Made by a program: the position numbers and the translations under genes. A DNA stretch of 63,995 bases, counting the filler, from Atractiella rhizophila (taxonomy: Eukaryota): the NCBI GenBank assembly GCA_021432655.1. It is 4 parts of 4 records of this genome, joined end to end, with 100 filler letters (N's around TTAATTAATTAA, not from the genome) between each part and the next. Parts side by side here need not be neighbours in the genome. Positions count along the whole stretch, not along the records: positions 1 to 28,509 come from MU271482.1; 3 more parts are not named here. One strand, given 5' to 3'. Positions 3,000-15,448 of this stretch are shown here, piece by piece. The notes under the pieces were generated by a model. It had not been told where the DNA came from, searched no databases, and saw only the letters and a list, made by a program, of their open reading frames with translations. The stretch's first letter is position 1; each line of letters begins with the position of its first letter.

Positions 3000-4734
3000 A
3001 TGTCGCAGCCGTCCTTCCCACCTTCAGCAGGAGGGGATCCAGACCCACGCATCCACTTTGACCGTCTCACAGGGAAATGGAAGTTCGAAGACGACGCCAG
3101 CGGGAAAGAGTACGAATACGACGATGGGAAGGCAACGTGGGTGGAGTGTGTGGATGACGAGGTTATCAAAAGGCAGCAGGAGGCTTATAGTGTCCAAGGG
3201 GTTGATGAGCAGGTGGGTTTCTTCTCCCTTTCTCTACGATGCACCAAGGGCTGGCATGCGGTGAAGTCACCACCGAAGGAATGAGAAGAACGTGCCTTGT
3301 AACAAAATGGAAGCGGGGACTGTCAGCGCTCGTGAACATTGGACGATGCATTCGCTCAGAAGTTCCGCTGCATCCCTCGCTATAGCTTTTCCTTCCTTGC
3401 GGGATGAAGGCTCCAGAAGGAGCCAAAGACTGGCCTTTCTTGCCTTTTACAACAGCAGAAACATATGTCCAAACCACCTGCTAATATTTGGCGAATTAGA
3501 CGCCAGCTGCGCCAGTCTTGAATCGTGGGAAGAAACGAAAGAAGCAAGACAACGACGACGACGACACGCCAGCGATCCTACGAGGAAAAGTGAAAAAGAG
3601 CAATTCCTCCAAAGCCTCCACTTCCGCCGCCCCTCCACCCCGTCAAACCGCCGTGTTCGTTTCCAATCTTCCATCCTATACCACCGTTGAGCTCCTCCAT
3701 CGGACCTTCCTCAAAGGCGGAGTGATCTTGGAGTCGTCGGATGGAGAACCGAAGATCAAGATGTATTATGATTCGGAGGGACGGTTCAAGGGGGAGGCAC
3801 TCGTCGTTTATTTGAGGGAAGAAAGCGTTGTGCTGGCTACCACCTTGTTGGATGACACGATTTTGGAGAGAGAAGAAGAGGAGGGCAAACCCGGCGCAGA
3901 AGGTGGAGAGGGCAATAGGATGAGGGTCGTGAAGGCTGAGTTTGGAAAGAAGATGGAGGTCGATTCGACGAGGAATGGGGAAGCAGGTGGGAGAGGAGGG
4001 GGGAATGGGAACGGGATGGCGAAGAGTGAGGAGATGAAGAAGAAGAAGCAGGGGAAGCAGGCCGAAAAACTTAAGATGTATGCCCCTCCACCTCTTCCTT
4101 CCGTCTCAAGCAGTTCCCAATCGAAACCTGACCACGAACGTTCACGCAGGAAACTTACTGACTGGTCCTCAGACGAAGAGGACGCATTAAAGACCTTGAA
4201 CAAGTTACCTAAGATTGTTATCCTCCGAAAGATGTTTACGCTCGCCGAGTTGGAAGAAGATCCGAGCTTGCTGCTCGATTTGAAGGAGGATGTCAGGGAG
4301 GAATGTGGCAAGTTAGGCGAGGTCACGAATGTGGTGCTTTACGATGTGCGTCTTCTCACCATGCTTCGCTTCATTTCATTGTCGATACTGATTTCACATC
4401 TGTGGGAACAGAAAGAACCAGAAGGGATCATGAGCATCCGTTTCAAGGATGAGCTCTCCGCACAAGCATGCGTCCTCGTACGTCCTCTTCCTAATTTCTT
4501 CTCCCCAATCATCTCTCTCAAAGAACTACTGCCTGACGTCTCTTGATTGGATCCTAGAAAATGAACAATCGTTTCTTTGGCGGCCGACAGATCCAAGCTG
4601 CCCTCCTGGAGGGAAAACCCAAGTTTCGAAAGAGCGCAGATAAGGAAGCGATCGTGCCCGACAAGGCGACGGAAGAGGAGGAAAAGAAGAGGATGGATGA
4701 TTGGAACAAGTGGTTGGAGGAGGGAGGAGAGTGA
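3000..4734 (+). CDS. CUS2: U2 snRNP-associated splicing factor Cus2/Tat-SF1 (RRM + UHM)
   Basis: ATG at 3000 (MSQPSFPP...QQEAYSVQGVDE). RRM1 reads AVFVSNLP...KIKMYYDSEGRFKGEALVVYLREESV, and the UHM reads IVILRKMFTLAELEEDPSLLLDLKEDVREECGKLGEVTNV...MNNRFFGGRQI. TGA at 4732-4734. Confidence 0.9.
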
Positions 4735-4886: not shown

Positions 4887-6395
4887 TCAAGAAAAGTCAT
4901 CGAATCCCATCAAGAAATGCTTGTACACCGACATGATCTTTGCCACAAATGCTAAACAGGGAGGCGCAACCTTCAGTCCAAAGTCAAATGGAGGAAGTAT
5001 GACATACCTTCGATGTGGAATATCGGTTTGTTGCCTTGCACCACTCGATGTTCATAATGTGCTGCCCAATGGATAATCTCCGGCTTTAACGCCTCATCAA
5101 CCCTCTCTGTCAATCTTTTCGCCAACGTCTGTCCCACAATCTCACCGTCAATTTGGATTCGAAGGAAAAAGGTGATCATGGAGAGACATACGGAAATGAC
5201 GATGCCTGGAGGAATGCAATGGACGAGCAGCTCATAAATCATCCCTCTGACCTCCAACAGCCTCTCTGGCGACTGATCGCTGATGATTTTCTCAGCAACC
5301 TTTCCCGCATACTTCTCCCAGTCCGGCCTCGGCACCAAGTCGAGAGCATCGTTCAGGGCTTTGCGTGTGGGGTTCGGTTGCAGCAGTGGATGGTCGTCTG
5401 GGATTTTGGAAAAAGTGGGATCTATGGTGGCTAGGGATTCAAGGGTGAGAAGGGCACGCCGGAGGTTGCGAGATGAAAGACGGGAGAGGAGCGGTGGGAT
5501 GTGAGGTGGAACTTGAAGGGAGGCGAGGGTGGAGACGCGTTGGATCACTTTGCATATCTATGTCCCCTTCAATTATCTATTCCTTCCTGGGAGAACGAAG
5601 CAGGGAACAACCTCGTCTTCTGATGGCGCTCCGACGCGCAGGAGAAGGCAACGAGACTTGATGGGACTGATAATTCGTGAAGTGGAATTCGCACAAAGGA
5701 TGACCCGTAAGTTGGCGGTGTACTTCTCCATCGTACGGCGAAGGGCTGCCTGGGCGTCTCGACTCAACAAATCAGCCTCGTTGATCACCACCACTACTTT
5801 CCAGTTAGATCCCCACCATTGAGGAGAAAGTCTGTGCTGACCTTTGAAACGCTTTTTTGCATTCAGATCCACTTGCTGTGTCTGAGCAATTTCTTTGAGG
5901 ATGTCTTGCACGACAGAGCGGTCCCAGTTCCCAACGTCCCTGCCTCTCCTTTCAACACTAACTAAAGGTGACGCAGGGTTGAAGCTCACGCAGGAGTCAA
6001 TTCAATGTGGTAATTCGACTGAACGACATTCACGTCCAATTTCCGCCGGCTGGGGGTGACGAAAACTCTCTGATCTATCCTCAACTGTCCTCGAGAAGGT
6101 ATCACGCTCCCCTTCGCCGTTCTTCAGCACGAGAGAGCGCACCTTTTCAACGCCAGGTCCATAAAGCTCCCTCAGCGTTGCCATTATCCTCGTCTTTTTC
6201 CCAGCACCTGAAGGACCATAGAACAAACAATGCGGGAAGTCTCCTCCTTCAGCCTGTAGGACGCGGTTATTGTCAGGACTTTGGTAGAAGTCGTTTGGGA
6301 CGACGAACGAGTGTGGAGATGCGCTTTGAAAGCTCGGGGTGGTAGTCCAGCTCCTCCAAGCTCTTTGGGCGGTATTTGTCTACGTATAGCGACAT
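4887..6395 (-). CDS. RFC5: Replication factor C small subunit (yeast Rfc5 / human RFC3)
   Basis: Spliced reading: MSLYVDKYRPKSLEELDYH, Walker A FYGPSGAGKKTRI, DRSVVQDILKEIAQTQQVD, INEADLLSRDAQAALRRTMEKY, ISPIKSRCLLLRV, YELLVHCIPP, GNKPIFHIE. Confidence 0.95.
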
Positions 6396-7665: not shown

Positions 7666-8963
7666 TTCTTCACAGATCCTGGTGAACAAACCTGAATACC
7701 TCCAGCCTCTCACTATGACAAATGTTCACCAGCCCTTCCAAACCTTCGATTTTCACCATTTCATATCGTTTTAACCGGCCGACATATAGTGCTTTTGATG
7801 AACTTATTTCTATTTCTGTGTGCAAATTTCAGGGATCTCTAAATAAACAGATGCAATACTGCTCCTCAGACTGAAGTGCAATACTGCGACATCACTGCCA
7901 AAGAGATTAAATCTTCAACGCGGTTCCACAGTCAGGTGATATTTCAATTAGTCTGAGATAAGGTTGAGGAAACCCTTTGTCTTCGGGCTTCCTCTCGCTG
8001 GACCACCATCAAACCATTGACACATCGCTCCAGTTTTCGCTCATCCAACCTGCGTGGCTACTCGATAAAGTGACTATACCTGCAAGATTGCTGGGCAGAC
8101 TTTTCTTTTGAATTTTACTATAATTTGTCAGTCCCAACCTCTGCTTCGCCTTCCTTATCCCGCGGCAGCATCCCCCTGGTTGCTTTGCGATTTGTAGGTC
8201 CAGCCGCTCACATGAACGATTGGGGAATAGTTTTTTCGTGCTTGCGTTATCCTGTCTGTACGTTTTAGGGACTTAAAAACAGCATTGGAGAGAACACGAG
8301 TATAGTCTGTTGGGTTAATCTACATTGGTGCTTTCTAGGTGAGTGGACATCCGATTCCCTGTTTCATGTGTTCAAAAGTATGGGTGTTTGCGCAAACATC
8401 AGTTCTGGGGGACTTTACATACCCTCAAAGTTTGCCCTGATCGCGCTGGCACTCCTCAGTTGAGAACATGCGTTGATTCTCTTCGTTTTGCGGGGTTGGG
8501 TGGTCCGCCCAAAAAAAATAGTCTTTGTAAACACTGTCACGCCTTCAAGTTCGCGGTCCTTGGTTCTGTGGATCTTGGTCACCCGTCTGAAGAACGCTTT
8601 GCTTTAATCTTCATCCACAAGCACACATGCCACTGCCACCATATTCAACTGGGAAGACAGAAGTCGGATCAAAGTCCTGGCAAGTCCCCCGCGACGGAAC
8701 CCGGGTACGGGAACTGAATTTTGAGATCTGAATTGTTTGTAGGCGCGCAAAACAAGCGGAACTGGTGTCCCTCCAGAGGGAACGAGAGGTGGGTACATCC
8801 GCAGTTTGCCCAACTTTTTGGTTCTGTGTGTGTGCGGTACCAACATATATCACAACGTCCGCTCCTACGAGAGCTCCTTTCTTGATGCTCCTTGAATGTC
8901 CATGTCGATATCCATGGACCTTGGGGTCTCGCCGTTCATTTCCCCTCACTCTCTTTGTTCAAA

Positions 8964-11629
8964 ATGAAGAAACCTCAAACAAAAACTAACGCCTCCTGGC
9001 GCCGCTTTGGCTCTACACAGAAACTGACCGAGGCCACTCAGCGAGCGATCCTCGAGGTGCGTTTCAAAGCATGAGTTTGTTTTGTATCTCACCTTTATTT
9101 GCATACATAGAGCGAAATCCAAGCCAAGTTAAGGGACGGCGAATACAGCGATTTAAGGGAAATGCAAGAAACTGAAGAAAGGTTCGTGCCCCTACCTTAT
9201 GCTGCCCCATCTTAACTATCAAGCTTGATAGGCTTCGTTTGTTGAGGGAAGAAGTTGAACTCTTAGAAAGTCAGAAACTCGACGCTGTCCGGTGTACCCT
9301 GATCATCGAACAATGGTTGCTTATTTTTGTTGATAGGAATCTGGATTCGATCGATCCAACTTTGAATCTGAAGCTAGAGGTCTGTTCATCACCCACAAGC
9401 GATTGCACATAGTGATGTGGAGTTGCTTGCAGAACTTCTTCTCCGACAACAAGCTGAGGAGCGAGCAAACGCACTCCTTAACGGCAGAGACGTCGAGGAC
9501 CAGCGAAGGGTGCGTTGTTCAACTTCACTTATGTATAGCCTCTAAATGTAATATGCATAGAATCCACGTCTCGAGGCGGAGAAACTATTGATGGAGCAAC
9601 GGGACAAAGATAAACAGATGCAAATGTTGCGGGCGAGGTCCGTAGAGGGGCTCATTTTCACACATCAGTAATGTTGACACATAAGTCTGTAGGCTGAGCC
9701 AACTCGGACAAACTCAGGGACCTCAATCCAGGAATGGGCAGGATCCTCTCGAGACATATCGTCGAGCCATGCAAGCTAACAACAATAATCGACAAGGCAC
9801 ATCTGGCCGCGTTGTGTCTGGTAACTCGAATCAGAACGCAGATTCAAGGTGGGGATCAATGCTGAACGGAAACAACAACCGCAATGCCCAACCAAGTGCT
9901 CAATCGATCCTTCGCAGCCTCCAGGGAAATCAAACACCGGGTTGGAACCGAGGAGGTGAAGCTGCCACTACCAATCGATGGGGAATGCCCGCGAATTCGC
10001 TCTCGACCCAATGTGAGCAAACTTCTCTCCGCATTCTTCCAGAACTCATTGTGACCTTGATAGCCAAACGACCCTCACCCAAATACTCTGCAGCCAAGAT
10101 GGACGATTTCATTGGTGTGTATTCTCCATGGAGATTCCTTAGCTCATCTGAGGCTGCTTTATAGTCGTAACGGCCGACACAGTCCCTGGCTTTACCGTCA
10201 CTCGACTACTTGGAGACGTCTGGGGGACAGCCTTGCGAGAAATACCGACACACAACCTCACTCCTGCTGAAGAGGAGCTTGCTCGCCGTTCTGCCCATGA
10301 GGACCGCCGGCATGCTGTTTCAGAGATGATCGAGAACGCTCTCCACAGAGGAGCCAATGGTTCGTCTTGCCCTATATTCAGTGCCTATCGCCGAGTGCCC
10401 TGACCAACTCTTGGTTAGCCGTCTTTGGCCTGCGATTCGAATCCTCTGCTCCTGTCACTCCCAATAAGGTTCGTCGCCCCTACATATGAGCCATGATCTG
10501 AAGCTGGAAATATCAGGCTGAGATCGTCTCTTACGGAACTGCAGCGATTGTTAGCCCTTCGAATTCCCCTATTCAGCGCCAACAGCCCCCATTGATCTCT
10601 CCTTCTGCGTCCCGCGGCGGCGGCTCGAACTCCTCCATGAACTCTGCCCTTCTGCAGGCCCTCCAACAAACTCGCTCGAATGCCGCTAGTCGTCAGACAG
10701 GTAAAGGATCCGAGACTCCTGGGCTCAGTAATTATCATGGCTTGAACGGTGCGAGCTCAGGTCTGGGCGGCGGTTTGGGTGGTCTGGGAGGGAGAGGTGG
10801 CAGTCAGAACCTTCTGAGCCAACTGAGCAATGCGGCTGCCGGCGCCAACCGTCGGACTAATTCTACGAGCGCTCTTACCTCTCGAAGCCAGTCGCAGTCT
10901 CGATTGGGCGGCCTCCATGGCTTAGGCTCCTCTACCGGTCTTGGAGGAAGGACCAATCAACTAGAAAACGATCTTGCCGGTCTTCAGGATCGACTCCTGA
11001 AAGAGCGAGCTCGACAACTGGCTTCTCAGGGCGGTGGAGGAAGAGGAGGTCCTCCGGCTATGTACAATGGCATTGATCTCTCGAACCTTCACGACTCTCT
11101 CGACAACAACGATGGTTATGGAGGGGGAGAGGATTATGGAGAGGAGGAAGAGTATCAGGAAGATTATGCTAATTATGATGAAGAGATGGACCAACTTGCT
11201 CATGATGACCATCAGAATCTTCCCAACATGGCTACAAGAGGACGAGCGGGTTCCATGTCTGGCGCTGCTAGTGGCGCACTTGGTAACATATTGAGAGGAT
11301 CGAAATCTGGCGATTTGCGTGCGAAGAGCCCAGGACGACCAGGACTGCCAAGTGCCAACTCATGGAGCTCAAACGGCGCAGCTTCGAAGGTGATGAATAC
11401 ACCGGGAAAGATCTCCGAGAAGGGCAAGTCGTCCTCGACGCCGTGGGGAACAACTCCAAGAGCCCCAACGGATAATTGGGGAGGAGACGGCGGTGATGGC
11501 GACGAAAGCGGATGGAACAACAATGGGAACTTGCCTGAAGAAAACGACGGCGGATGGGGAGGTAAAAATGACAACTCCAACCCAAACGATGGCAGTTGGG
11601 GCGCCAATGGACCTACAACGTGGGGCTGA
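8964..11629 (+). CDS. Coiled-coil + YbjQ/UPF0145 domain + WG/GW-rich disordered protein
   Basis: About 10 introns read by eye. Coiled coil RLRLLREEVELLESQKLDA. The YbjQ signature spans exons in 10164-10553: VVTADTVPGFTVTRLLGDVWGTA...DRRHAVSEMIENALHRGAN|AVFGLRFE...|AEIVSYGTAAIV. The long G/S/N-rich last exon ends in six WG/GW motifs. Confidence 0.75.
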
Positions 11630-12207
11630 TTTCCTTTCACGTTATTTTTCGACCTTCATTTGTTTGTGCACGCATCTATCTTACGTCCATGTCTTCGTAT
11701 TTTCTAATTTGCATCATTTCATTCAAAACGGGGAGGTCGGTTTTCCAAACCGTAAGCACTTTCCTCCTGTCTCACGCTCTGCTCCACCACTTACTATTCA
11801 ATTGTCATATTCAAAAGAGCTTTTCTGCCTTTCAAAAGAGACATGGACCCCTTTCTACGTTGGGACCAAAAGTCCATTGCTTGGTATAATTCGAAACACC
11901 AAACCCAAAGAATTGCCCCCGTTTTGTATTCGCATCGTTTGTGCCTTGACTCCAGCTGTGGCGTCTTCAGAAACGATTATCTCTGTCTTCGATAAGTTTT
12001 TCTCATACAACAATACCTTACTGATTTTGGCCTCTTGTTTTTTTGCATATTTTTCGGACTTTCTCACACGGTCGACATTCCATCGCCTGCCCGGATTCGG
12101 ACCTCGTCAACTTGCTGCCTGCAACTTTCGATCAATTATACCTGGATACCTACACTTCTAAACCCGCGGTTACACGTCGATTATCGCATTACAGAGAGAC
12201 GAACGAT

Positions 12208-12516
12208 ATGAATAATCCACGAACACCCCGACCCGACGTCGCAGCAGTGGAAGCGGCATTGAGAGAAGTTGATGAAGCGAACGCGAATGCAAGTGTAAAA
12301 TTACCCTTGATGACCGAAGATGACACAGGCTTGGGAGGGGGAAACGAAATGGATATGGTTGCTGAGCTAGGAGGCGATAACTTTGGTGCCTTTGGTGCAG
12401 GAGAAGGGCTTGGAGGAGAGGAGATTGTGGCACCGAGCGCGCCAGACGACTTTGCCCCCGCTATAACAAAGAAGAAGGGCGGTGGCGCTGGCGGGAAAAA
12501 GGGAAAAAAGAAGTAA
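12208..12516 (+). CDS. Small acidic/Gly-rich hypothetical protein with Lys-rich C-terminus
   Basis: ATG at 12208 opens 102 aa, MNNPRTPRPDVAAVEAALREVDEA...KKKGGGAGGKKGKKK. The composition is protein-like. An upstream exon cannot be excluded. Confidence 0.55.
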   Translation: MNNPRTPRPDVAAVEAALREVDEANANASVKLPLMTEDDTGLGGGNEMDMVAELGGDNFGAFGAGEGLGGEEIVAPSAPDDFAPAITKKKGGGAGGKKGKKK

Positions 12517-12655
12517 CAGATGATTGGATTTATGTCCAGACTCTTGGATTGCATCAGTCGAAATAGTTTGTAAACAATCTCTTTAGCTTCACGGTTGATA
12601 TCCCCTTCATATACACCCTGTTGTAACTTAGACGACTTTCAGATCACCTATTACC

Positions 12656-15448
12656 TCACGTTGCCTTATGAGACCCTGGGGCAGCAGTTAAAGTTTTCAA
12701 CCGCAACTTTGCCTCCTGCCTCAGCTCCTTCTCGTCTCCTCTCTCCAGTTCATGATGCTGGATCAAAGTGGCACTGACGATGAACCCGAGCGTGCAAAGC
12801 CCGGCACAAACAAGAAAGACTGTTCGAAATCCCAAAGCGTAAGCGTGAATGAGAACCTTTTGGTCTTCTGGAGAAAGTATCCTTGAGAGACTTGACCGGA
12901 TAGCCGTGGGATCGTCTAGCACAATTTGCAGTACCTCATCAGGTAAGTCGATGGATTGCGCCTCTTGCCTGATGACGTTGTTGATCAAAGCGCTAGAAAT
13001 GGCGAGCCCAAGGGTGCCTCCCAAGAAACGGAGGAAGGATCTGTTGTGAAAAAAGAAACGAGTGAATTGTCGAGGCTTGCGATAGCTGAACAAAGATTAC
13101 CTGACTGAAGTGACAACAGCCTGTGATGAACGGGTTATCACAATCAGTCGCAGGGGATATAACAGACGGTGAGCGCACCATATCTTTCCTATCCACACTT
13201 GCCTGGAGGCCGGTCAAGGATGTGAAGAAAATACAACCTGGTCCGACCGCTGCAAGGAAGAGAAACCCCATAACCTTGGAGTCCTTGGTGTTCTCTTCAA
13301 TGGTGGCCAGAAGTCCACAGGCAACGCTCCAAATCACAAATCCAGTTATGATCATAGCCTACGGAACGACGATCTTGGTTAGATAAGAAGCAGTTTGCGG
13401 GGATGGCGTACCCTCCATACTCCTGTCAGAGCAGTAATCTATTCACCAAAGTTGAGTAAGTTGGGATGGACAACGATAGGAACGTGCTTACTTGTCCACA
13501 AATCAGCACCATCACAGTTACTCCCAGCACAAAAGGAATCATGAGAACTCCGGCTCTTTAGATGCACATTAACAAGCCGCTTTGAGACATGGGAGACTTG
13601 GACTTACCTCACCGCTATAAGCGTTTGTTTGATTAGCGAAAACCGCAGTCACAAAGAGGAAAACGTACGACTGTAACCTTTGGCGATGATGAGAAGCTGG
13701 GGGACAAAGATTATTGAATTATAATAAACCATGCCCAAACACAGTGTGACGAGGCAAACCCCGGATACCGTCCGAAACCTTTACTACACAGTCAGAATGA
13801 ACCGTCGAGGATGCCAAGCGTTCTTACCTGAAAATATACATGGGAACAATCGGTAGTCGTGCAACCTGTGATCCTGTCCGAATGCCGTCGTCTTATCAAC
13901 AATGATGCTCACCTTCCATTCCCAAAACCAGAATGCAAAAAAAGTTGCAAGAGAGACGAAGATTAGGACTAGCACTGGGGCTGACCTGAAAAGGAGAGTT
14001 TGGACAGAATTTCTAGGAACACGCTTGAGAGCTTACACCCATTCATACTCGACACCACCCCTTGAACTTGAAATCAGAACGTAACACGCATGGGACTACT
14101 GCTACGTACCAATTGAGAGCGATCTGCAGCCAACAAGTATCAGTAAAGGACGGAATGAGATAAACTAAATTTACGAGTAGGAGGATGGAGCCGGTTAAAG
14201 TCTGATATCAGCAAAATCAACCTTCACGTACCCTTTAGAGGCAATGCAATACTCACAAACGCCGACCCAACATAGTCAATGGACTTCAACTTTGAATAAA
14301 GGTCCCCTTCAACTTTTTTTAGCGGCAGGCAAAGAGTTATGAGCTTCTCATCTGGATGAGATTTGTGATCCAGCTTTGTGATAAGGTACTCACGGTCAAC
14401 GCGACGCCGCTGATGGGAAGATTGATCTGTTGTAAAATTAAACCGAGTAAAGGAATATTGATTGACCTCGGGACGGACCCAGAAGCACCAACGCCATGAA
14501 ACCTGCTCAGAAAACACTCCTCCTGTGCTCAGTATCAGCACTGTTCCAGTGGTTACGTGGGACTCAATGACCCAACAGTGGACCTAATCCATTTGAGATG
14601 GCAGCGACGCATTCGAAGATTCCTTGATACTGGTCCCCTTAGCTCAAAAGTAAAGAGACGGGAAAAAACGAACTTTTCCTCGATTTTTAAGGTCCACAAT
14701 GTCAGACTAGAATAACAGGCAGACTAAATATTAATCGTACGGAGTAGATTCAACTCACCGCTATTATATACGTTAATGTCATGATATTCCCTCCACCGAT
14801 TCCTACGCCTAGTCAGGTCACTGTCACATCGTGGGCACATTCTGCGAACCTTGAAAGGCCCTGAAAACAATTAATTGTGTCATCGACTGAGAGAGTGCAC
14901 AGGCTAGAGAAGCCAATAAGAACTCGATCTAACAGATGGTCATCACAATTTCAGGTCTAGAAATACTGAAACTCACAACTCCGATCAGCAAAACCAATTT
15001 CCGGCCAAAGATGTCACTGAGACGACCAAAGGACGGTTGAAACGCAGTTGAAGTCACCAAGTAGCTGTTTACGTTCTCAATATACCGTCCATCAAGAATC
15101 AGAGAGGATAAATTGGACGCACGCCGTGACCACCCATACTGATTGACGACCACCATTGAAGTAAGCTGCCACCGTTGGAAGTGCTGGACCAATGATGACT
15201 TGGTCAAGGTAAACGAGCGCCAGACAGAGTGCCAAGGCGATAAATACGACGACAGCTTGTTGGGCGGGGAGGAAGTTAGTTTGCGTCGTCAACACCACGT
15301 TTGAGGCACTGGGAGAATCTTCTTTGAGCCCGCTGGCATCTTTGAGATCTTGGTCTTGTTTTGTGTCGAGGCGAGAGTTGATCTCCAAAATTTCCAAATC
15401 AACTTCATTCTGGCAATCACGGATAGGAGCAATGGGTTTGTCTGACAT
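12656..15448 (-). CDS. MFS drug:H+ antiporter (DHA2, 14-TMS type)
   Basis: Motifs LVYLDQVIIGPALPTV, SYLVTSTAFQPSFGRLSDIFGRK (motif A), GGVFSEQVSWRWCFW, IDYVGS, FLRFLGGTLGLAISSALINN. Many short introns. Confidence 0.9.

Follow-up and report, generated by a model that had tools for sequence, protein, structure and literature searches.

What protein is encoded at positions 8964-11629 (+) of the DNA studied here, where a scan for open reading frames (ORFs) found no single long frame across the interval? The window, i.e., the whole stretch analysed, comprises 63,995 nucleotides of the assembly GCA_021432655.1 of Atractiella rhizophila, a root-associated fungus placed in Pucciniomycotina, class Atractiellomycetes, and the locus lies in the part taken from MU271482.1. 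An earlier note, made from the sequence, had read it as a YbjQ/UPF0145 domain set in a disordered protein rich in Trp-Gly (WG/GW) dipeptides and had proposed that these dipeptides recruit Argonaute. The locus is an expressed 11-exon gene, and its product, P0001, carries a YbjQ domain between long arms in which Trp and Gly adjoin non-randomly; the layout and the Trp richness recur in related proteins. From this we infer oligomerisation, display of the motifs on disordered arms and some partner for them, that is, an oligomeric scaffold displaying Trp motifs and known so far only from Pucciniomycotina, a reading towards which we lean with slightly more belief than doubt. What is new is the architecture; its parts, the YbjQ domain and GW-type motifs, were already known. 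The literature matches listed for P0001, the rust homologues and any fungal YbjQ protein (three locus tags included) contained no paper on them.

A spliced, expressed gene with a YbjQ domain

Evidence for expression came from contigs of two root metatranscriptome runs, X2 and X4, of which 8 and 10, respectively, matched positions 8800-11800; two public raw-read RNA-seq runs, X22 and X24, contributed 0 reads to this interval and carry no weight either way. GT..AG joints were seen at nine of the ten introns in X2 and at all ten in X4, and the introns inside the gene measured 48-59 nt (Table 1). Translation of the 11 exons gave P0001 letter for letter (714 aa), which is the deposited hypothetical protein BT69DRAFT_531952 of A. 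rhizophila, with PF01906 precomputed; the 64-residue exon stretch 10167-10358 was 100% identical to P0001, its sole match among 319 candidates. The exons, which the earlier note had left to be settled by RNA, are thus confirmed by ten joints. Enumeration of GT..AG introns from the sequence alone had yielded four open models of 717-734 aa, all of them wrong at introns 3 and 4 by the RNA joints; for intron 3, the guessed donor 9292 was corrected by the joint 9286/9337.

One X2 contig spans 9748 to 11247 through introns 7-10, and one X4 contig spans 8905 to 9806 through introns 1-6, with an overlap between the two at 9748-9806. The N-terminal arm, the YbjQ domain and the C-terminal arm are therefore joined in shared spliced contigs, which goes against the separate transcripts for the 5' and 3' parts that the earlier note had named as a danger to its reading. 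The contigs differed from the window at 17 positions, 16 of which were coding (11 synonymous and 5 nonsynonymous), and such a synonymous excess is what one would expect if constraint acts on the protein, disordered parts and all.

Residues 262-355 of P0001 matched the Pfam family YbjQ_1 (PF01906) with 45.8 bits against a cut-off of 23 (E 1e-11, profile positions 2-102 of 103). The coding sequence of the domain comprises the final 4 bases of exon 8, all of exons 9 and 10 and the start of exon 11 (10517-10549), and the domain was missed in the ORF-level view because exon 9 alone scores only 21.4 bits, which is under the cut-off. The domain that the earlier note had rebuilt from three short exons (10164-10553), and whose YbjQ match it had made decisive, is therefore borne out; three main coding exons do carry it, although the third belongs to the 1113-nt last exon and is not short.

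A profile of nine eukaryote-type YbjQ domains (A2) found the PDB entries 2gtc, 1vr4 and 1y2i, each with five chains. The AlphaFold2 model of the domain built on A2 reached a predicted local distance difference test (pLDDT) of 86 and a predicted template-modelling score (pTM) of 0.74. In a Foldseek search with this model, 1y2i_A (E 1.8e-7, template-modelling score (TM) by target 0.77), 1vr4_B (E 1e-6, TM by target 0.87) and 3qkb_A (E 6e-5) were retrieved, and the best matches overall (1y2i_A, 1vr4 chains and 3qkb) ranged from 2e-7 to 1e-4 in E and from 0.71 to 0.87 in TM by target. Residues 262-355 are thus a genuine YbjQ domain in both identity and fold. The five-chain crystal entries of its homologues suggest that the P0001 domain probably self-associates.

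The domain shares with the YbjQ / UPF0145 / DUF74 family (PF01906; 1Y2I, 1VR4, 2GTC, 3QKB) the fold, in a confident model, as well as the succession strand-helix-strand and two motifs, GAN and YGTA. Unlike those proteins, it makes up 13% of a mostly disordered eukaryotic protein of 714 aa, is split by three introns and has a charged stretch in place of the Gly-rich loop found in 2gtc, P0002 and P0008. The latter two (627 and 460 aa, respectively) are built from YbjQ domains, four to five in tandem, that carry the canonical Gly-rich loop, and stand apart from the fungal family in the tree described below. C2CD5 is another long eukaryotic protein with a YbjQ-type domain (PF23025, YbjQ_2) inside it, and the cut-off of PF23025 is passed by the homologue P0007 (31.7 vs 29.1 bits), whereas P0001 reaches only 16 bits; P0001 lacks a C2 domain and in other respects is unrelated to C2CD5.

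Table 1. Features of the YbjQ gene and its surroundings, in window coordinates. X2 and X4 are the two metatranscriptome runs; CDS, coding sequence.
Feature	Position	Strand	Remarks
Upstream ORF, 21 codons	8902-8967	+	MSISMDLGVSPFISPHSLCSK, then stop; from translation; stop overlaps main ATG (ATGA)
CDS exon 1	8964-9056	+	start codon 8964; residues 1-31, W12; joint 9056/9111 in X2 and X4
CDS exon 2	9111-9181	+	contig joints
CDS exon 3	9232-9286	+	joint 9286/9337
CDS exon 4	9337-9379	+	contig joints
CDS exon 5	9433-9509	+	contig joints
CDS exon 6	9561-9637	+	end of E/L/R-rich helical N region; joint 9637/9693 in X4 only
CDS exon 7	9693-10012	+	N/S/Q/G-rich disordered arm 1: W192 (SRWGS), W223 (PGWNR), W235 (NRWGM)
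CDS exon 8	10064-10114	+	linker; final bases begin YbjQ domain; contig joints
CDS exon 9	10165-10359	+	contig joints
CDS exon 10	10419-10468	+	contig joints
CDS exon 11	10517-11629	+	1113 nt; domain end, arms, GW tail; stop 11627-11629
Introns 1-5	9057-9110, 9182-9231, 9287-9336, 9380-9432, 9510-9560	+	contig joints
Introns 6-10	9638-9692, 10013-10063, 10115-10164, 10360-10418, 10469-10516	+	contig joints
YbjQ_1 domain, residues 262-355	10111-10549	+	split by introns 10115-10164, 10360-10418, 10469-10516
GW tail, residues 651-714	11435-11626	+	G 25%, N 17%, D 11%, W 9%; net charge -8
Optional intron, 575 nt, in frame	11620-12194	+	GT..AG; donor aac/GTGGGG, acceptor CATTACAG/aga
Alternative last exon, in frame (putative), 106 residues (P0151)	12195-12516	+	ends in KKKGGGAGGKKGKKK; stop 12514-12516
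RRM-type protein	3500-4546	+	judged by eye from ORF translation
Clamp-loader-like / replication-factor-C-type AAA protein	4973-6379	-	judged by eye from ORF translation
Major-facilitator-type transporter-like gene	12656-15448	-	judged by eye from ORF translation

Tryptophan-bearing arms and the fungal family

The first 140 residues of P0001 are rich in E (16%), L (14%) and R (14%), and a helical N region extends over residues ~20-140. The N-terminal coiled coil proposed in the earlier note is partly backed by this composition and by a crude heptad scan, which flagged residues 37-75. Arm 1 (residues 141-255) is N/S/Q/G-rich and leads to the domain. After the domain come an arm rich in G, S and L, then a block that is both acidic and Tyr-rich (~540-575), then a basic stretch with much Ser, and last the GW tail. 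The Atlas full-length model of P0001 has a mean pLDDT of 0.45 and a pTM of 0.22, consistent with disorder; a feature-based search of the Atlas yielded no usable match. Aromatic residues in the 352-residue tail comprise 7 W, 7 Y and 0 F.

P0001 holds 12 Trp, 10 of which touch Gly. Within the disordered arms the fraction is 9/10, and six of these nine (W654, W665, W677, W691, W705 and W713) lie in the last 61 residues at spacings of 11, 12, 14, 14 and 8 residues; together with W192, W223 and W235, they account for all nine WG/GW dipeptides that the earlier note had counted outside the domain. The observed W-G count was reached in 0 of 20,000 shuffles of the whole protein, the 9/10 of the arms in 16 of 100,000 shuffles confined to them, and the 6/6 of the tail in 640 of 100,000 shuffles of the tail alone. 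When all 285 of the window's six-frame ORFs with a length of 80 aa or more are compared, only this tail has six Gly-touching Trp per 64 residues; the next-best ORFs have three, and one of them is this gene's own N arm. DNA tandem repeats were absent from positions 8900-12600 (0 found). The W-G pattern in the arms is non-random.

A HMMER search of 1.84 billion representatives found 212 relatives with E values up to 0.001. Each of them matches through the YbjQ region, and none matches at full length. The 149 best non-self matches comprise 86 proteins of up to 160 aa, 55 of 161-350 aa and 8 of more than 350 aa; six of these eight long matches belong to the fungal family of P0001, and P0152, which came from a domain-only alignment search, has the same layout. 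A full-length alignment run as a word-indexed search returned only P0001 among 8000 candidates, with low-complexity words crowding out relatives. Seven other long proteins (664-1247 aa) have the order of parts seen in P0001: a Trp motif at the N terminus, then charged helices and a disordered arm ahead of the YbjQ domain, and after it a long N/G/S/Q-rich arm that contains Trp. The N-terminal motif is of K[T/E]WR type (W12 in P0001) and is present in all five homologues with a recorded N terminus (P0004, P0049, P0152, P0007 and P0065).

Five of the seven come from the Pucciniales Cronartium quercuum, Melampsora larici-populina and M. americana and, in class Microbotryomycetes, from two Phenoliferia. 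These five homologues and Atractiella cover three classes of one subphylum, Pucciniomycotina, and the search for the same architecture in other fungi, as suggested in the earlier note, was accordingly successful. PF01906 scored over its cut-off in eight of the nine homologues scanned. The exception, P0049 (M. americana; 21.5 bits), falls below it because of a 19-residue extra stretch within the YbjQ domain (residues ~545-565), which is probably a retained intron in the annotation.

Only the YbjQ region aligns across the family, and 13 of the 23 invariant columns of the family alignment, the GAN motif included, fall in residues 271-353. The tails are otherwise unalignable and contain 1.9-3.2% Trp in 8/8 long members. 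Each of the five rust-type proteins has 11-16 tail Trp, of which 6/11 to 12/16 adjoin G or N, i.e., stand in [G/N]W or W[G/N] context. A Trp is found in the final three residues of P0001 (TTWG), P0007 (GHW) and P0065 (GGWAG). In a quick maximum-likelihood tree (140 domains, 125 columns, unrooted), the eight long proteins and four shorter ones (P0009, P0020, P0148 and P0032) lie on one side of a branch with a Shimodaira-Hasegawa-like approximate likelihood ratio test (SH-aLRT) value of 98.

The best non-fungal domain matches include Actinomycetota proteins (Propionibacteriaceae, Microlunatus; 37-42% identity), which have the same loop subtype and likewise join the domain to disordered low-complexity regions, in their case P/Q/Y-rich. 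They parallel, in bacteria, the combination of disordered arms with a YbjQ core, and differ from the fungal family in being bacterial, in their length of 200-300 aa and in their arm chemistry. In P0006, P0010, P0011, P0012, P0015, P0017 and P0057 (loci L001-L057), the P/Q/Y-rich region is N-terminal and starts with MSNYGQQP..., and several of these proteins have a C-terminal W-P-P. Acquisition of the domain by gene transfer from Actinomycetota was considered and is not supported, as the fungal clade is not nested in Propionibacteriaceae/Microlunatus in the quick unrooted tree.

The transcript ends and the neighbouring genes

The gene has an optional intron at its 3' end (Table 1), about ten times as long as its other introns. 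The match to the window breaks off at 11619 in one X2 contig and one X4 contig and is followed by 255 other letters, the first 30 of which are exactly 12195-12224 (0/100 shuffles match). With this intron removed, the frame keeps Thr712, loses its final Trp-Gly and stop codon and gains 106 residues, so that the spliced isoform would have 818 aa and would end, with the added peptide P0151, in a polybasic K/G run. The intron-retaining form occurs as well (X2 record 6). Contig depths in X2 (23.4 for the shared piece and 7.4 for the unspliced branch) give at most a hint that the intron is often removed. The P0151 region has its own ATG at 12208, and 12195-12516 may be either an alternative last exon or a small downstream gene joined by read-through.

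P0151 matched no Pfam or NCBIfam family and had no usable Atlas match. All five rust-type homologues (P0003, P0004, P0013, P0049 and P0152) share a C-terminal acidic run together with the motif G-[LM]-x-G-[GA]-[AL]-[FY]-E-[FG]. In four of the five, this motif is followed by hydrophobic sequence resembling intron read-through in gene models. P0151 was tried as a carrier of the same motif and rejected: the best BLASTP alignment had 7/12 identities (E 1.3), and 727 of 1000 shuffles scored as high against a small profile of the motif.

At the 5' end, the X4 contig begins at 8905, which places the second ATG (8914) of the upstream ORF inside the observed leader. An upstream stop overlapping the main start codon (ATGA) is a layout typical of translational control by re-initiation. 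The three neighbouring genes, named by eye from ORF translations, suggest no link to RNA interference (RNAi), and Rfam gave 0 matches on positions 8000-13000.

Possible roles of the tryptophan motifs

We propose that the YbjQ core, probably multimeric, would act together with the segmented helical N region to gather several copies of two long disordered arms. On these arms, Trp residues exposed to solvent in G/S/N/D-rich spacers would amount to many displayed copies of a short Trp motif, which may bind a Trp-pocket partner with low affinity and high multivalency or may cluster among themselves.

Several points weigh against such a scaffold. An embedded domain could have lost the self-association suggested by the crystal entries of its homologues, and the YbjQ domain may do more than hold copies together, because a function is unknown for any YbjQ domain. 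Three shorter proteins examined from the same clade have no Trp-rich arms: P0009 and P0020 have one Trp each, and P0148 has five, all near the N terminus. In the two Phenoliferia proteins, only 1/10 (P0007) and 5/14 of all Trp touch Gly. Identity at Trp and overall identity are about equal in close pairs (0.81/0.82 in the Melampsora pair and 0.57/0.53 between Melampsora and Cronartium); the other pairs gave 0.49/0.34, 0.37/0.33 and 0.75/0.40, and the higher Trp identity in distant pairs (0.49/0.34 and 0.75/0.40) is inflated by the aligner's reward for W-W matches. The conservation of Trp among orthologues, to which the earlier note had tied its reading, is seen for richness, which is kept in 8/8 long members, and is weak for position, which is near background in close pairs; the G-flanked flavour is weak in Phenoliferia. 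Among candidate partners for the Trp motifs, Argonaute has the best precedent and leads, although in our estimate it is still an unlikely one.

The proposal of the earlier note was that the Trp motifs are Argonaute hooks, which would make the protein a GW182-like multivalent hub recruiting Argonaute to RNAi bodies in Pucciniomycotina; we regard this as a minority possibility that still deserves weight. All six tail Trp touch G, and they stand 8-14 residues apart in a G/N/D/S/T-rich, net-acidic and disordered context resembling the Argonaute-binding regions described for GW182 and for plant and fungal GW-repeat proteins. Two Trp need to be separated by about 10 residues or more to reach separate Argonaute pockets, and the spacings in the tail are of this order. 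Several Gly-adjacent Trp in a disordered G/S/N/D/T-rich region, the hallmark of the hook class, are likewise present in the arms of P0001. Other platforms of the GW/WG 'Ago-hook' type are Tas3, NRPE1 and SPT5L. The Trp contexts in the tails of the rust-type homologues point in the same direction.

The Argonaute-binding domain of GW182/TNRC6 itself also has several Gly-flanked Trp about ten residues apart in a disordered G/S/N/D-rich region, and in it the number of Trp is kept while the flanking sequence drifts, as may also be the case in the present family. P0001 shows no sequence homology to it, and the arms with the Trp motifs are here attached to a helical region and a YbjQ core. The domains of the GW182 family are absent, as no Pfam family other than YbjQ was found in P0001 or in six long homologues (E up to 0.1-1). 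In Pfam at E up to 1, only YbjQ models match P0001, and all of the relatives found by HMMER match through YbjQ. Judged by its sequence, P0001 is not a GW182 family member, because no Pfam family besides YbjQ was found; it may still work like GW182, for which we would allow a modest chance.

Published accounts bear on both sides of the hook proposal. In the available portions of PMC12477606, human AGO2 is described as having three Trp pockets set apart from one another, and binding to Argonautes is reported for GW-repeat proteins of plants and of fungi; the same portions indicate that conservation of these pockets is incomplete in fungal Argonautes, TRP2 being the one that scores low. A basidiomycete precedent is provided by Cryptococcus, in which, according to excerpts of PMC10402008 and PMC4778953, the 'GW182-like' protein Gwo1 binds Ago1, affects the production of small interfering RNA and is located in processing bodies, and Gwc1 is listed as a 'GW/WG protein'. 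Compared by description only, Gwo1 and Gwc1 resemble P0001 as basidiomycete proteins defined by their GW/WG content, and they are tied to RNAi; they differ in belonging to Agaricomycotina, and a YbjQ domain is not mentioned for them in those excerpts (PMC10402008, PMC4778953). Core RNAi genes were reported in 12/12 Pucciniomycotina genomes studied (PMC12210899, in its consulted sections), so that co-occurrence with Argonaute holds trivially and does not discriminate. Atractiella is mentioned 0 times in that paper's main text as consulted, and its own Argonaute is assumed here. Literature matches listed for GW182 with rust terms included none naming GW182.

Several findings oppose the hook proposal. 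The family is seen only in Pucciniomycotina while Argonaute is nearly universal, which leaves no phyletic signal; the pairing of Trp with Gly weakens in Phenoliferia; nothing about the neighbouring genes suggests RNAi; and a Gly-rich composition by itself raises W-G adjacency, as the tail-only shuffle illustrates. In a more elaborate version, a Pucciniomycotina-specific GW182-like organiser would consist of a ring of perhaps five YbjQ subunits presenting dozens of Argonaute hooks and nucleating RNAi bodies, and use of the alternative 3' exon would put a polybasic tail in place of the last hook. We rate this version as a longer shot than Argonaute binding as such.

The arms could instead be self-clustering, with Trp and Tyr as 'stickers' in G/S/N 'spacers' which, joined to an oligomerising core, would form a condensate or gel in the absence of any Trp-pocket partner. 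The sequence features that speak for this are the long low-complexity arms, the restriction of tail aromatics to W and Y, the acidic Tyr-rich block, the oppositely charged segments and the putative multimerising core, and the aromatic content of the family's tails is conserved while their sequence is not. The strict pairing of W with G, rarely matched by shuffled arms, and the regular spacing of 8-14 residues point instead to a recognised motif rather than to generic stickiness, and we consider self-clustering doubtful.

A further alternative places the function in the domain: YbjQ would carry the main activity, e.g., ligand or metal binding as the Pfam label has it, while the arms would tune solubility, localisation or turnover and the Trp would bind other machinery. 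That the YbjQ region is the only part aligning family-wide would agree with this, as would the shorter proteins of the same domain clade that lack Trp arms and the Actinomycetota relatives, in which the same domain subtype is paired with unrelated P/Q/Y-rich disordered regions. Against it, no activity is known for any YbjQ protein, and the literature matches listed for YbjQ/UPF0145/PF01906/DUF74 included none on a fungal member or an established function; moreover, the retention of Trp richness in the tails of 8/8 long members argues that the arms matter; we hold this alternative to be improbable. An annotation artefact, i.e., separate genes or a pseudogene merged on paper by splicing, would fit a domain invisible to a plain ORF scan, a sequence-only splice model that erred at two introns and an ambiguous 3' end, and it is contradicted, as far as contigs allow, by the spliced contigs of two independent runs that bridge introns 1-6 and 7-10, as well as by a frame that is open throughout and equals the deposited model, by the synonymous excess that fits a coding gene and by the order of parts shared with homologues, which leaves it a negligible chance.

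The favoured reading, an oligomeric scaffold displaying Trp motifs, concerns a very widespread domain whose structures are solved, and the eukaryotic family gives a new handle on it, in which YbjQ would act as an oligomerising hub. Even without Argonaute binding, the family would be a clean natural case of an oligomeric core joined to short linear motifs in spacers, a design typical of condensate scaffolds, and one that can be tested in a root endophyte that is culturable and harmless. To our knowledge, RNAi cofactors in Pucciniomycotina are essentially uncharted, and if the arms bind Argonaute, the family would supply the missing GW-type adaptor of this subphylum, which includes the rust pathogens. 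A GW182-like YbjQ organiser, if true, would give YbjQ domains their first function and would show a new structural way of recruiting Argonaute multivalently.

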